Virus record (IMG/VR): IMGVR_UViG_3300009514_000005
Location: 1 to 64,000 of that record
Reading direction: 5' to 3' (one strand)
Length of the DNA stretch: 64,000 nt
Source: a virus
The notes under the pieces were generated by a model. The model was not told where the DNA came from. It saw nothing but the letters and a program-made list of their open reading frames with translations, and did not search any database. The translations under genes and the position numbers were made by a program. Shown here piece by piece: positions 6,933-51,428 of this stretch; position 1 is the first letter of the stretch; each line of letters starts with the position of its first letter.

Positions 6933-6939
6933 CATTAAG

Positions 6940-7010
6940 CCCAGGGGCCAGGAATCTAACCTGAATCTTCCTATTAACAAAATAGGGCTTTAACATTAAG
7001 CTACCCCCGG
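6940..7010 (-). pseudogene. degenerate tRNA (Asn-like ancestry, or Thr(UGU) by geometry), no encoded CCA
   Basis: Cloverleaf: acceptor CCGGGGG/CCCCTGG, D stem GCTT/AAGC, anticodon stem CCTAT/ATAGG with loop TTTGTTA, T stem TCAGG/CCTGG with non-canonical loop TTAGATT; nt 26 missing, D-loop GG mutated. Confidence 0.7.
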
Positions 7011-28673: not shown

Positions 28674-29661
28674 ACTTTAATTCCCGCCCTTTTCGTTTCC
28701 GATTCAATAAATCTTAACTCAATGCCAAATGAATCATTTCTTGGTATAGTCTCTTTTATTATCTTCCAAGAAGCCTGCATTTCATGAAAGCCAAGGTCTA
28801 TCAATAAATCTTTAAGCAAAACAAGATACCTCGCAGCGATATCGGCCTGCTCATTGGTATTGCACCCAACCACAACTTTTTTGGCTTTAACCAAGCAGCG
28901 TTCAATAAACTTTTCTTCATCACACATGATTATCCAATACGATAAAATTTACCTTATGTAAATAAATTTGATCAACTATCGGGACAGTGGCGAAGCCTCT
29001 GAGATAACACTGAAAATTCAAATTTTATTACTTCTATACGACAAAATTCAGCCATGCTACTCATACAATCCAGCTCTGCCTTTTTACATCCAAGCCCCAT
29101 AGTTATTAAGTGACAACGCATAAACACATATCGCTTAACGTAGTCGGACTCCATCGCTCTATATTCCATACATTGCTGGCTTACATCGTCTTTCGCAGCA
29201 ATAATGTCGCATCCTTTATTTGGAATCAAAAAACAAGATACGATTAAAGACTGAAGGATCATCCATTAATTGTAATGGATGCCTTGCTATTAAACATTTA
29301 AAAATCTTTTAAAGAAACTGTCTTACCTTTTAGATCAACAATTCCCAACTGGGCCTTTATAATAATCAGCATGTAAGGAATTAAACATATCAACCCACTT
29401 TCCATCTGTTGTTCTAAAAAAAATAGTTAGATCAAAGGTTTTCATCATTTGAACGAAATCTCTAAACCATTCCTCATTCTCAGGATCCATGGCGATCAAT
29501 TCGTCTTCATGCTCCGCTCGAGTTTTATTCTCTTTTTCAATCAAAAAAGACTCCATAATTTTTTCTGCTTGAGAAAAAGTACCAGCAAATTCTATTTTGT
29601 TTTTTTCTTCATCCACAATTTTAAACATATTCTCTCCTTTATATTTCAAAAGTTTCATCAA
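28664..29661 (-). other. hypothetical CDS (28664..28927, 28972..29262 Cys-rich with signal-like N-terminus, 29335..29661)
   Basis: Co-oriented packing. Confidence 0.55.
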
Positions 29662-30529
29662 CCTTCACTCCAATAAAATCCTCAAGACTGATCGGACCAT
29701 TCTTATCAGCAAACATGGTATGACCAATCTCTTTTTCCTTTTCAACATACTGCTTAAAAACATTGGGATTTTCTTTTGCAGAGACCCTAAGATCACTCTT
29801 CTTTGCCATGATACAAAACATACAACTTAATCGACTCATCCCTTTTGCATAGGCCCAATGTAATCTTTGACCAGCATCCTCGACAACACCGAGAAGATCT
29901 TCCAGCGAATAATTAAAAATAGGATACCAATCATAAACAAATCTTTTTCCATTAGGCTTGCTAAGATTATTAACCCTTTTAACTCTCCCTTTTTTATCCA
30001 GCTTTCCTTCTGGATGATTCATTTTTTCAAACAAAGCAAGACGTTTGCTAAGACCAATAGTGAGGGCTTCGCCAGTTTTCTTGAAGTGATCTTTATCAAC
30101 ACCTTGCTTTCGGCCATCAGATTCACCGGCTCTGATTCCAACACAGTTCACGGCATACTTAGCACCACGCTCTTTCATGATTGCACGAATGAGAACATCG
30201 ATTGGGCCAGTCTTTTGGCCGGAAGTACACTGACGGTACTTGGGCGATGGCCACATCCCACGCTTGGTAACCATCTCCATAAAGGTTTCATTGGCCACGA
30301 CAACCCTAAGATCGTGATCGCCAACAGTTGCCTTAATGTGATCAAAGGTTCCAGACCAGTCTGCCCCTGGAAGATCAGCATGAACCACGACGATCTGACT
30401 CTTGGGAACGATCCTTTCGATCTCGATCATCTGGGCTTGGGAGTCCTTGCCTCCTGAATGACTCACAAAAAATATGGCCCCTAAGTCTATCAATTTTTTT
30501 ACTTCATCCAGATTTACTAAGCCCCTCAT
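29639..30529 (-). CDS. PAPS-reductase-family (PP-loop) protein
   Basis: VSHSGGKDSQA, CTSGQKTGPI, GIRAGESDGR, RLSCMFCI. Confidence 0.85.
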   Translation of the reverse strand: MRGLVNLDEVKKLIDLGAIFFVSHSGGKDSQAQMIEIERIVPKSQIVVVHADLPGADWSGTFDHIKATVGDHDLRVVVANETFMEMVTKRGMWPSPKYRQCTSGQKTGPIDVLIRAIMKERGAKYAVNCVGIRAGESDGRKQGVDKDHFKKTGEALTIGLSKRLALFEKMNHPEGKLDKKGRVKRVNNLSKPNGKRFVYDWYPIFNYSLEDLLGVVEDAGQRLHWAYAKGMSRLSCMFCIMAKKSDLRVSAKENPNVFKQYVEKEKEIGHTMFADKNGPISLEDFIGVKVDETFEI

Positions 30530-46488: not shown

Positions 46489-47376
46489 TTAATATTTACT
46501 CATTACGCAATGACCATGAGACATCTTATACTCTTTAAGCTCCTCATCAGTCATATAACCATATTTAGCAACCGCTTCATTAAGTTTTTCTGGCAAAAAT
46601 TTACGACCCCAAACTCCAAGGTTTTTATTTCCCTTATCCTCATTGGCTTTTAATTTGTTTTCTTCTATTCGAACCCAATCTTGATAGTCTTCCGGATGAA
46701 ACCTATAGAGCCAAAGTAATTCAATCTCGTTCATAAATGGACAAAGAATACAATTTGATGGAACCGGAACTTGGTTACCAGTTGAAGAAATATATTCCTG
46801 GCATCCTTTTCTGTCTAAACCAAGATCCACCAGTGGATAAATATGATTAATGGATTTTTTTCTCCACTTCATGGAATCCTTAGATGGATCTGCCATTCTT
46901 TTTTCTTCTCCAGAGGCAATACCAATCATCATTTTAATTTTTCCATACCGCTCTGCAAATCGAAGAAAGGCTTTCTTTCTTCCTTTGTCAACTCCATATT
47001 TCTTATGAAGCCAATCCTCTAAAAATTTATAGATAGGTTGAATCTTAAGTTTATCAGTGCAGGTTTTAGGGAAAGCTTTGGATCCAACAGTATTTTTAAG
47101 ATTATAAAAACCTCTCAACGACTGCCAAGAATCATAATGATATCCCATGTCACTGGTAAGGTGAACAAACTCAATTTTGTTTTTACCGCAAAATTTTTTA
47201 ATATTTTCAACATGACTATAAGTGTCCCGATGTTCATCACCAGTATCAGACATAATTACCAAAAAATCATTTGGAGCATATTTAGATCGGAACCCCTGAT
47301 CGTAAACATATTTGTAAAGGAGAGTAGTTGAATCCTGCCCTCCTCCAAATGATAAAATCGTTAACTGATCACTCAT
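46489..47376 (-). CDS. second PAPS-reductase-family (PP-loop) protein
   Basis: ILSFGGGQDST, CTDKLKIQPI, GIASGEEKR, YPLVD, SNCILCP. Confidence 0.8.
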   Translation of the reverse strand: MSDQLTILSFGGGQDSTTLLYKYVYDQGFRSKYAPNDFLVIMSDTGDEHRDTYSHVENIKKFCGKNKIEFVHLTSDMGYHYDSWQSLRGFYNLKNTVGSKAFPKTCTDKLKIQPIYKFLEDWLHKKYGVDKGRKKAFLRFAERYGKIKMMIGIASGEEKRMADPSKDSMKWRKKSINHIYPLVDLGLDRKGCQEYISSTGNQVPVPSNCILCPFMNEIELLWLYRFHPEDYQDWVRIEENKLKANEDKGNKNLGVWGRKFLPEKLNEAVAKYGYMTDEELKEYKMSHGHCVMSKY

Positions 47377-48959: not shown

Positions 48960-48996
48960 TAAGCCTCCTTCAAATTAATATCCAAAACCTACCCCC

Positions 48997-49047
48997 ATTA
49001 TCAGGTATATTCATCTAAATGTAAAGATAATTTCTTGACAAAACGTA
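48997..49047. promoter_or_regulatory. conserved promoter cassette, copy 1
   Basis: Minus: TTTACA-N17-GATAAT; plus-strand TTGACA at 49035; 41/51 identical to 57762..57812. Confidence 0.75.
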
Positions 49048-49122
49048 TTTTATTTACCCTAGAAATATCAACCACTTAAGACTTGCCAAGTCAAATAGAA
49101 AGGCTAATGGTATGATTTGGAT

Positions 49123-49314
49123 ATGAAGCTCTTTGTAAAAACCATCTCCTGGCGATTTATAGCTATGTCTACAACCGGCTTGATCTCTTACGTTCTCACG
49201 GGTTCAATTGAGATAGCGACTAGTATCATGAGCGTTGAAGTGGTGATAAAAAGTCTTTTATATTATGCTCACGAAAAGATATGGATTAAATACGGAGGAT
49301 CCCATGAAAAATAG
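49123..49314 (+). CDS. DUF2061-like small membrane protein
   Basis: KTISWRFIA ... K..LYYAHEKIW; extended -10 TGGTATGAT ends 6 nt before the ATG. Confidence 0.8.
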   Translation: MKLFVKTISWRFIAMSTTGLISYVLTGSIEIATSIMSVEVVIKSLLYYAHEKIWIKYGGSHEK

Positions 49315-50227
49315 AGCAATCTGGCTTACCGGCCTCCCGTGTGCGGGGAAAACCACTATAGCTCAAGAACTTGTAAAACTCATCCCAAACTCCACCATTC
49401 TCGATGGAGACATAATTCGATCAGGGCCCCTAGGCCAAGGGGTAGGGTTTTCCAAAGAAGACAGAGAAGCCCATATTAAGCGAATGGGGCATATAGCAAA
49501 AATTCTCTTAGACTCTGGGATAACCCCAATCTGTTCCTTCGTTTCTCCGTCAAGAGAAACCAGGGAAGAGATTAAAGAGTTCATAGGTAAAGATCGGTTC
49601 TTTGAGATTTTCATAGATCCTCCCTTGGAGGTATGCATCAAAAGAGACGTTAAGGGAATGTATGCTAAAGCCATGCGTGGCGAGATCCAAAATTTTACTG
49701 GAATCGATGCAACTTACGAAAAGCCAACTAACCCAAGCCTAAGAATTGATACCGATAAAATCTCCCTAAAAGACACGGTTAATTTTATTGTAGGCAAACT
49801 TAAAATTTATCCAGAAAGAGCTGCCTTTTTTATTGGCCGATGGAACGGTGCCTTACATTTGGGGCATGAGGAAATTTTCAATCAAGAATTAAGCAAAGGC
49901 AAAAGGATTGTTCTTCTCATTAGAAACGTTAGGCCAGACGAAAAAAATCCTTGGACCGCTAAAGAAGTCAAGGAAATGCTGGACTATAGATACAAAGATA
50001 ATGACAGTGTAAGCACTATGATTGTTCCAGATCTTGAGAGTGTTAACTACGGTAGAGGCGTTGGATATGAAGTAAAAGAGATAAAGGTTTCAGGAAAGAT
50101 AGCCGGGATCAGTGGAACAAAATGCAGAGAAATGATTCAAGACAATAACCCTGAATGGAAAAAACTAGTATCTCATAATGTTATTGAATTTTTAGAGCTG
50201 AAATATAGCAAAGAAAATAAAAAATAA
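49304..50227 (+). CDS. cysC: adenylyl-sulfate kinase fused to an HxGH nucleotidyltransferase domain
   Basis: WLTGLPCAGKTT, LDGD.IR, GFSKEDR, SFVSP, RDVKGMY, FTGIDATYE.P; C-terminal IGRWNGALHLGH and ISGTK.R; GGAGG before ATG 49304. Confidence 0.9.
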   Translation: MKNRAIWLTGLPCAGKTTIAQELVKLIPNSTILDGDIIRSGPLGQGVGFSKEDREAHIKRMGHIAKILLDSGITPICSFVSPSRETREEIKEFIGKDRFFEIFIDPPLEVCIKRDVKGMYAKAMRGEIQNFTGIDATYEKPTNPSLRIDTDKISLKDTVNFIVGKLKIYPERAAFFIGRWNGALHLGHEEIFNQELSKGKRIVLLIRNVRPDEKNPWTAKEVKEMLDYRYKDNDSVSTMIVPDLESVNYGRGVGYEVKEIKVSGKIAGISGTKCREMIQDNNPEWKKLVSHNVIEFLELKYSKENKK

Positions 50228-50257
50228 CTTAGCCCGAAATGCGGTTAGAATAGAACC

Positions 50258-50905
50258 ATGGAAAAAACAATCATAGTGATAGGGCAAGCCAGAAGTGGAA
50301 CATCCATGGCCGGAGGATTCCTGCAAACACTTGGTGTTCAGATGAGCGGGGCTGATAACAAATCACCTCAAAACCCAAAAGGGAGCTTTGAGGATCCGAA
50401 GTTCATAGGGATCACAACAAAAGTAACATCAGCCAAAAAAGCAAACACCCCTATAGAGGATATAAAAAAAGAATTCGAGCCTCTTTTTATTCAAAATATT
50501 AACGAAAAAAATCAACTCCATGGCTTATGGGGATTCAAAAGCGCCCTTAGCCATGAGTCTTTAGAGTTTATTATTCCTAACATTAGAAACCCTCATTTCG
50601 TTGTGACCTTTAGGAATGTTTACAGAAACGCAATGTCCTGGAAAATCCATGTAAAAGAAAGATACAAAACGGAAGTTACGATTCACCAAGCTCTTTCTAA
50701 GGTGTCCAAGGGAATTTGGGATGTATGCGAAGCTTTAGAAAAGCATCAAAACATTCCTTGTCATTTTACAACCTACGAAGAAATGAGATTTGATCCAGTA
50801 GGGCAGGGAAGAAGAATGGCCCAATTTATTGGGCTACCATACCCCGAGGAAATTGAGGCCAAGATCAAAGATTTCATCGTTATGGGATATTCAACAGTTA
50901 AATAG
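50258..50905 (+). CDS. sulfotransferase
   Basis: IVIGQARSGTSM (5'-PSB loop), NPKGSFED, WGFK, VTFRN....AMS (3'-PB), YEEM..DP. Confidence 0.85.
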   Translation: MEKTIIVIGQARSGTSMAGGFLQTLGVQMSGADNKSPQNPKGSFEDPKFIGITTKVTSAKKANTPIEDIKKEFEPLFIQNINEKNQLHGLWGFKSALSHESLEFIIPNIRNPHFVVTFRNVYRNAMSWKIHVKERYKTEVTIHQALSKVSKGIWDVCEALEKHQNIPCHFTTYEEMRFDPVGQGRRMAQFIGLPYPEEIEAKIKDFIVMGYSTVK

Positions 50906-51428
50906 ACTTCTGAGCACAAAGATAAAATCCATATTTAAACGGAAGGTTTATATCGGATCCATGATCAACCACAACCATACTGTTTCCGTAATAAGCCCTG
51001 AATCTTCTTAAAAATATTTCATGATAATAAGCATGGTAATGCTCAGCGTTCCATAAATTATCATATGCTGAATCATCTGGAAGATAGAGAAAAAGCTTTC
51101 CCCCTGGTTTTATAAAATGAATCCAATCATCCAAGGCTCTAAAGTCATTTGGAACATGCTCAAGACAATGAGACGAGAAGAGACAGTCGTATTGGGCAAC
51201 ATGATCAGGAAGCAATTCGGATAGCCTATAAATATCCTCTATCTGTGGAGGGTTGAAATCTACCCCAGGAAGTTTTCTGCCATCAATCCCAAAAGCTTCA
51301 GGCTTTATTTTGTCAGGACCACAACCAATCTCGATAACTTTCCCGCCACAGTACTGCATAGCGATATGTCTTATCTTTGCCGTCTCGCTTACAAAATCTC
51401 CTTCGCAACATCCCAAACTTTTACCCAT
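50898..51428 (-). CDS. class I SAM-dependent methyltransferase (Methyltransf_11-like)
   Basis: VIEIGCG, YDCLFSSHCLEH, IKPGGKLFLYLP. Confidence 0.85.
   Translation of the reverse strand: MGKSLGCCEGDFVSETAKIRHIAMQYCGGKVIEIGCGPDKIKPEAFGIDGRKLPGVDFNPPQIEDIYRLSELLPDHVAQYDCLFSSHCLEHVPNDFRALDDWIHFIKPGGKLFLYLPDDSAYDNLWNAEHYHAYYHEIFLRRFRAYYGNSMVVVDHGSDINLPFKYGFYLCAQKSI

Follow-up and report, generated by a model that had tools for sequence, protein, structure and literature searches.

A sulfotransferase gene in a bacteriophage raises the question of how its sulfo donor, 3'-phosphoadenosine 5'-phosphosulfate (PAPS), would be supplied. This question is posed by an island of plus-strand genes in the virus record IMGVR_UViG_3300009514_000005 of IMG/VR (134,619 bases; CheckV, 90%; uncultured phage), of which we analyzed positions 1 to 64,000 (here, the window; all phage coordinates refer to it). 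Coding in the window is nearly all on the minus strand, and the list of open reading frames (ORFs) places three plus-strand ORFs at 49117-50905 (Table 1). They encode a small protein of the DUF2061 family, a fusion of an adenosine 5'-phosphosulfate (APS) kinase (CysC) with a small C-terminal nucleotidyltransferase domain (NT), and a PAPS-dependent sulfotransferase. Comparison of sequences makes it likely that the phage carries, in this island, a cassette for activating sulfate and for sulfation in which NT makes APS, and NT itself probably represents a hitherto undescribed type of ATP sulfurylase of very small size. NT would transfer AMP from ATP to sulfate, the CysC half would phosphorylate the resulting APS to PAPS (making the fusion a 307-residue PAPS synthase), and the downstream 215-residue sulfotransferase would spend the PAPS on an acceptor. 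Sulfation of its target by the phage would then not depend on sulfate activation by the host. A literature search found no paper describing this enzyme or cassette. An earlier note on this DNA, made from its letters alone, had interpreted the fusion as a compact PAPS synthase that supplies the sulfotransferase, and this central claim gains support from the CysC fusions in both orders, the conserved operons, and the complementary distribution with a matched control that are presented below.

The APS kinase half of the fusion matched PF01583 (E = 6e-49) over profile positions 4 to 152 of 152 and TIGR00455 with 181.5 bits, above the curated equivalog-domain cutoff of 138.7. The motifs GLPCAGKTT (P-loop), LDGD, RDVKGMY, and FTGI are present, and the GKT of the P-loop and the LDGD, RD, and FTG residues were invariant in 29 relatives. 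Its family membership shows this domain to be a bona fide APS kinase. The frame of the fusion gene is open from 49265; its likely start, ATG 49304, lies behind a GGAGGA Shine-Dalgarno sequence (49294-49299), and the start of the ORF overlaps the stop of the DUF2061 gene by 11 nucleotides. Relatives of the fusion of approximately 300 aa formed 57 clusters, almost all of identical architecture. Cultured phages of Xylella, Xanthomonas, and Stenotrophomonas (e.g., Xylella phage Salvo, KF626668, 15179-15907, and Stenotrophomonas phage DLP_6) encode a "kinase" of approximately 240 aa that aligns with fusion residues 6 to 282 at 25 to 28% identity and that may represent a shorter, remotely related version of this two-domain design.

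The NT half (approximately 135 residues) contains the motifs GRWNGALHLGH, IRNVRPDEKNPWT, PDLESVNYGRGVGY, and ISGTKCR. Pfam has no family for this domain. It nonetheless has the features of the HIGH-motif nucleotidyltransferase superfamily (i.e., HxGH, a C-terminal ISxTxxR, and a Rossmann-like fold), its relatives match PF01467, and the family alignment shows no variation at H18, G20, H21, S103, T105, and R108. The profile of the NT family, when compared with the PDB, found archaeal NMN (nicotinamide mononucleotide) adenylyltransferases (NMNATs) as the best matches (1f9a, E = 3e-16), followed by phosphopantetheine adenylyltransferase (PPAT). Foldseek ranked the relatives of the AlphaFold2 model (predicted local distance difference test [pLDDT], 92.6) in the same order, with a TM-score to the query (TMq) of 0.69 for the NMNAT 4yp7 and a probability of 1.00 to NMNAT/PPAT.

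The ancestry of NT differs from that expected at first. The earlier note had taken the domain for a stripped-down sulfurylase of the Sat type and had suggested modeling it against Sat and NadM; both fold and sequence sided with the archaeal NMNATs. PF01747 (Sat) matched neither the fusion protein nor any other part of the phage record, and the Aquifex SAT/APS kinase (2gks) was reached by the NT family profile at E = 0.19, over the ISGT..R region only. When NT was aligned with nine Sat catalytic domains by profile-profile comparison (hhalign), the C-terminal 36 columns alone aligned (probability, 66%), although two distant NT relatives reach or approach the Pfam ATP-sulfurylase threshold. Because the alignment with Sat is limited to these columns and the best relatives are archaeal NMNATs, we rejected the view of NT as a cut-down Sat. 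The proposed function, sulfate adenylylation, is supported comparatively, whereas the descent is from the NadM branch.

NT is also distinct from NadM proper. The NadM-type NMNAT models of NCBIfam gave weak matches (E = 2.5e-8) that fell well below their full-length cutoffs (NF002243, 33.7 bits versus 127; TIGR01527, 24.8 versus 181.2) and that were confined to the N-terminal 75 or so residues of NT. Its alignment to the archaeal NMNAT MJ0541 (1f9a) splits into residues 4 to 76 and 109 to 156. The approximately 32 residues between them (77 to 108, following strand 4), which we take to include the NMN-binding loop, are absent; their equivalent in NT is a short loop of approximately 7 residues with the highly conserved sequence SVNYGRGVGY and a nearly invariant Arg. 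A second conserved Arg that is specific to the family, R40, follows strand 2. These features fit a very small anionic acceptor. We conclude that NT is an independent, trimmed offshoot of the NadM/archaeal NMNAT branch within the same HxGH superfamily as Sat. In evolutionary terms, a NadM-type NMN adenylyltransferase would have lost its NMN-binding segment and gained the short Arg-bearing loop.

An exhaustive search of 1.84 billion representatives detected 689 NT relatives (E <= 1e-3). Among the best 150 of these 689, 43 had the order CysC-NT, 16 had the order NT-CysC, and approximately 90 were NT alone (many of them short fragments). Protein P0058 exemplifies the reverse order, and P0060 is a fusion of NT with DUF2061. 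In a metagenomic protein of 249 aa (P0115), NT is fused to DUF6717 (E = 7.8e-34), a family of unknown function. We also fetched 80 viral contigs with the fusion family, 44 of which contain NT. With hyphens for fusions and slashes for adjacent genes, the module appears in these contigs as DUF2061/CysC-NT, CysC-NT/DUF2061, NT/DUF2061-CysC, NT/CysC-DUF2061, DUF2061/CysC/NT, CysC/NT/DUF2061, and NT-CysC; the three parts are thus shuffled into almost all orders and fusions in many contigs. When the 138 ORFs around 37 nonredundant viral modules were scanned with Pfam, sulfotransferase families were the commonest match (5 ORFs), followed by sugar-nucleotide enzymes and glycosyltransferases.

The loop motif further located 160 NT genes in species-representative bacterial genomes, and 80 of them were kept for analyses of gene context. 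NT occurs in Chitinophagaceae, marine Bacteroidetes, Dadabacteria-like Thermodesulfobacteriota, Nitrospiraceae, and Spirochaetia. Loci of the Chitinophagaceae type (approximately 20) consist of a DUF2061-CysC fusion and an overlapping NT gene, with a sulfotransferase gene directly downstream in 19. A Nitrospiraceae locus (L091) encodes, on one strand, an Rrf2 regulator, a sulfite reductase-TusA protein, CysH, and NT; in this operon for assimilatory sulfate reduction, NT occupies the position of the sulfurylase. In marine Bacteroidetes, adjacent CysC and NT genes lie beside the methionine synthase gene. Upstream of DUF2061-CysC in approximately 18 Chitinophagaceae genomes (L083-L094 and similar loci), we observed a conserved cupin resembling Asp/Asn beta-hydroxylases (PF05118) and an unannotated 235-aa protein; this arrangement hints at a hydroxylate-then-sulfate pathway acting on a peptide or a small molecule.

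The distribution of NT is complementary to that of the known sulfurylases. APS kinase was present in 54 of 55 NT-bearing bacterial genomes, whereas a Sat domain was detected in 3 (all Nitrospiraceae) and CysD in 1; of the 54 genomes with CysC, only 4 have Sat or CysD. The three Nitrospiraceae Sat domains (L169, L170, and L171 in G005, G004, and G130) are fused to CysC and have GWD, EPN, or GQD in place of GRD, and in one of these proteins HxxH is replaced by YRVH, with loss of the first His. By their motifs, they look like inactive Sat-like domains, NT being located in the operon of sulfite reductase and CysH, and they recall the inactive Sat-like domain of the APS kinase of Thiobacillus denitrificans. 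For the control set, 81 genomes were drawn at random from the Chitinophagaceae-level family to which the seed genome belongs, and NT was found in the seed genome only. All 23 NT-lacking control genomes with CysC had CysD (17 genomes) or Sat (6 genomes). The association between NT and the lack of Sat/CysD (Fisher's exact test, p = 7e-16) is inflated by the kinship of the genomes and should be read as indicative only.

The five genomes of the first test, including three titled chromosomes (G001, G002, and G003), contain CysC and neither Sat nor CysD, and further single-chromosome records are included in the later set of 50 NT genomes. In five closed NT genomes (the three chromosomes plus G108 and G114), NadD scored above the cutoff in all five and CysH was detected in four. 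A consumer of activated sulfate is thus present in the four genomes with CysH, and the retention of a true NadD makes NT dispensable for NAD synthesis. Since NT genomes with CysC and CysH lack Sat and CysD, the sulfurylase is missing from genomes that need one, and NT is found exactly there. No Sat is encoded in the phage record itself, and neither of its two PAPS-reductase-like genes is CysD, which counts for NT as the sulfurylase. Taken more broadly, the data incline us to regard NT as a third evolutionary class of ATP sulfurylase (approximately 130 residues, NMNAT derived) that is widespread in phages and several bacterial lineages, where it replaces Sat/CysDN, and that would form, with CysC and DUF2061, a portable three-part unit for sulfate activation by which phages could sulfate a target without relying on the host.

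The last gene of the island has both PAPS-binding motifs ascribed to it in the earlier note. Its product exceeded the gathering scores of PF13469 (37.9 bits versus 27) and PF00685 (32.1 versus 22), and the 5'-phosphosulfate-binding (5'-PSB) loop ARSGTS and the 3'-phosphate-binding (3'-PB) pair R119...S127 were invariant in 19 relatives. The best Foldseek matches of its AlphaFold2 model (pLDDT, 93.4) were sulfotransferases with bound 3'-phosphoadenosine 5'-phosphate (PAP), with TPST1/2 and the CurM sulfotransferase first (TMq, approximately 0.6) and SULTs also among them. Despite the likeness of the model to tyrosylprotein sulfotransferases, the acceptor may be a glycan, a protein, or DNA. This gene is the sole Sulfotransfer_3 match in the phage record, and none of its relatives detected by jackhmmer lies beside another viral module. 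As its viral relatives lie in records without CysC, the conserved unit is DUF2061/CysC/NT, and the sulfotransferases are exchangeable clients. The co-occurrence of all three genes across phages, which had been put forward as a check, therefore holds for DUF2061, CysC, and NT, and the set that includes the sulfotransferase of the window is not conserved.

The DUF2061 protein matched PF09834 with 69.1 bits (gathering score, 23.1) over profile positions 2 to 51 of 52, and K8, K45, H52, E53, and W56 were invariant in 13 viral homologues. It looks like a small two-helix hairpin protein. In many viral and bacterial loci, the DUF2061 gene adjoins or is fused to CysC or NT, and a DUF2061 gene is also reported inside a Mesorhizobium nod locus with nodH, nodP, and nodQ (bioRxiv 10.1101/2022.04.26.489235). 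DUF2061 is thus solidly linked to sulfate activation. The synteny and the fusions support its earlier assignment as a partner of the module, and we conclude that it is a dedicated small partner of sulfate activation, in which it may act as a membrane tether, in the handling or uptake of sulfate, or in oligomerization.

Several observations weigh against NT as an ATP sulfurylase and against the unity of the cassette. All support for this function is comparative; both sequence and fold place NT nearest to NMN adenylyltransferases and PPAT rather than to ATP sulfurylases; and the hhalign match to Sat, with its 66% probability, covers the C-terminal ISGT..R region alone. Many NT genomes are metagenome-assembled genomes, in which absences are weaker than those in closed chromosomes, and the genome sets are phylogenetically clustered, so that the Fisher p value overstates independence. 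G100, an NT-bearing genome, encodes CysD and a second CysC as well, and the NT gene of Dadabacteria-like genomes is a solitary one amid housekeeping genes, with no sulfur genes next to it. Among the viruses, sulfotransferases account for just 5 of the 138 ORFs flanking the modules, and two relatives of the sulfotransferase of the window occur in records without CysC.

Each of the rival explanations accounts for less of the data than an APS-forming NT. The resemblance to archaeal NMNATs (1f9a and 4yp7, with the values given above) and the source annotations of NT relatives as "NMN adenylyltransferase" or "FAD synthase" would suit an ordinary NMN/nicotinic acid mononucleotide adenylyltransferase for NAD salvage by the phage, fused to CysC without a shared function. 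We regard this as highly improbable, since the MJ0541 segment 77 to 108, taken to include the NMN-binding loop, is deleted, phage and bacterial NT alike are joined to CysC or lie beside it in both orders, the closed NT genomes retain a true NadD, and the distribution of NT is complementary to that of Sat/CysD and not to that of NadD. A role as a sugar- or polyol-phosphate nucleotidyltransferase (TagD or RfaE-domain-II type) that makes an activated sugar for a glycan sulfated by the phage, with the CysC fusion serving coexpression only, would agree with the size of NT (TagD-type 2b7l, 132 aa), with the sugar-nucleotide enzymes and glycosyltransferases that often neighbor the viral modules, and with the weak match of NT to phrog_395 ("cytidyltransferase"). 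However, glycerol-3-phosphate cytidylyltransferase was found by the PDB profile search at E = 0.057 versus 3e-16 for NMNAT; NT is tightly linked with CysC and DUF2061 (and with CysH and sulfite reductase in Nitrospiraceae) rather than with glycan genes; and the absence of Sat and CysD is left unexplained, making such a role quite improbable.

It is also unlikely, if less remote, that NT binds a nucleotide without being a sulfurylase, either as a regulatory domain sensing APS/PAPS or ATP or as the catalyst of a related reaction (ADP-sulfurylase-type turnover of activated sulfate or the adenylylation of another small anion, e.g., selenate or molybdate). Noncatalytic kinase-like or sulfurylase-like domains do occur in this pathway (e.g., the C-terminal domain of fungal ATP sulfurylase and the Sat-like domain of Thiobacillus denitrificans), and the Nitrospiraceae Sat-CysC proteins have degenerate Sat motifs. 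Against it, hundreds of relatives retain the catalytic HxGH, GR, and ISxTxxR residues with little or no variation. Moreover, stand-alone NT genes occur in genomes that have CysC and CysH and no sulfurylase; a missing catalytic step must therefore be filled in these genomes.

Table 1. Features of the plus-strand island and its upstream region (window coordinates)
Feature	Position	Strand	Evidence or remark
Divergent intergenic region, helicase operon versus island	48960-49116		Probable promoter region
DUF2061 gene	49117-49314	+	PF09834, E = 4.4e-19; start at TTG 49117 (65 aa) or ATG 49123 (63 aa)
CysC-NT fusion gene, 307 aa	49304-50227	+	APS kinase, then small nucleotidyltransferase; candidate compact PAPS synthase
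APS kinase (CysC) domain	49307-49795	+	PF01583, TIGR00455; residues ~2-165 of the 307-aa protein
NT domain, NadM-like HxGH nucleotidyltransferase	49814-50221	+	Family profile, E = 6.6e-58; candidate miniature ATP sulfurylase
PAPS-dependent sulfotransferase, 215 aa	50258-50905	+	Sulfotransfer_3, E = 3e-9; Sulfotransfer_1, E = 1e-7

The island stands out from its surroundings, as had been noticed earlier. All three of its ORFs were recovered, and the remaining plus-strand ORFs of at least 100 aa overlap the densely packed ORFs of the minus strand, of which they seem to be shadows. One boundary had to be corrected: the ATG at 49108, formerly given as the start, meets a stop after two codons, and the real DUF2061 ORF begins at one of the two later codons listed in Table 1. 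The GC skew is negative across the window and rises at 48 to 52 kb, where the AT skew also becomes positive. A minus-strand helicase operon borders the island on one side and a minus-strand methyltransferase/ClpP/RusA block on the other; the flanking minus-strand phage genes encode a helicase, a PAPS-reductase-like protein, a methyltransferase, a ClpP-like protein, RusA, and a metallophosphoesterase.

The divergent intergenic region probably holds the promoters. Its minus strand contains TTTACA-17-GATAAT at 49025-48997; on its plus strand, the TTGACA at 49036-49041 lacks a -10 hexamer at suitable spacing, and a plus-strand promoter could not be defined. Both are matches to the consensus only, such matches being no commoner than in shuffled sequences. 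Shine-Dalgarno sites precede 53% of the phage ORFs versus 18% of random positions, and the phage seems to use them. At the other end of the island, a minus-strand S-adenosylmethionine-dependent methyltransferase gene (50898-51428; Methyltransf_23, E = 2.8e-9) converges on the sulfotransferase gene with an 8-nucleotide end overlap, and no terminator was found between the two. The two PAPS-reductase-like genes mentioned above are divergent PP-loop genes of the PAPS-reductase family, both on the minus strand: 29639-30529, with a weak match to DndC (E = 6.6e-5), and 46489-47376, which matches phrog_424. They were considered as candidates for CysD and rejected, as NCBIfam assigned them to neither CysD nor CysH; they may consume PAPS from the cassette or act in nucleic acid modification. 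The single tRNA gene of the window is a tRNA-Thr(TGT) gene (6939-7010, minus strand).

Sulfate activation is generally attributed to two enzyme types, Sat and CysDN. If real, a third and very small sulfurylase would alter the way in which genomes are interpreted for sulfur assimilation, and lineages now scored as lacking ATP sulfurylase may have one. It would also offer a compact PAPS synthase of approximately 300 residues for biotechnological sulfation. For phages, a complete supply line for the sulfo donor would imply that the sulfation of some phage or host molecule matters in infection.

The fusion resembles the bifunctional PAPS synthases (human PAPSS1/2, Aquifex aeolicus SAT/APS kinase 2gks, and CysN/CysC) in that a sulfate-adenylylating module and an APS kinase are joined in one chain, in either order. 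In PAPS synthases and Sat-CysC proteins, however, Sat comprises approximately 350 to 400 residues with a PUA-like domain, as opposed to approximately 135 for NT, and the whole protein has 546 aa (2gks) or more, as opposed to 307. The closest relatives of NT by sequence and fold are the archaeal/NadM NMNATs (MJ0541, 1f9a; M. thermoautotrophicum, 1ej2 and 4yp7; NadM-Nudix, 2qjo), with which it shares GR(F/W)QPxHxGH, NP(F/W)T, and (I/Y)SGTxxR. It differs from them in the missing segment of approximately 32 residues, the conserved YGRGVGY loop, and the extra conserved Arg after strand 2. It also differs in its company, which consists of CysC, DUF2061, CysH, and sulfotransferases in hosts that keep NadD.

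Sat (PF01747) and CysDN catalyze the reaction that we propose for NT (ATP + sulfate -> APS + PPi). Sat is also a member of the HxxH nucleotidyltransferase superfamily and shares with NT the order HxxH ... GR(D/G) ... ISGTxxR; NT is nevertheless of a different family, has no QxRN motif and no PUA-like domain, and is approximately one-third the size. CysD, for its part, is of the PP-loop type and depends on the GTPase CysN. Most NT-bearing genomes lack both Sat and CysDN. The rhizobial nodP/nodQ/nodH loci are like the phage cassette in placing genes for PAPS supply beside a sulfotransferase gene, and the Mesorhizobium nod locus has DUF2061 as well. Their sulfurylase, however, is the classical CysDN-type NodPQ, whereas the cassette described here has the small NT domain and is carried by a phage.

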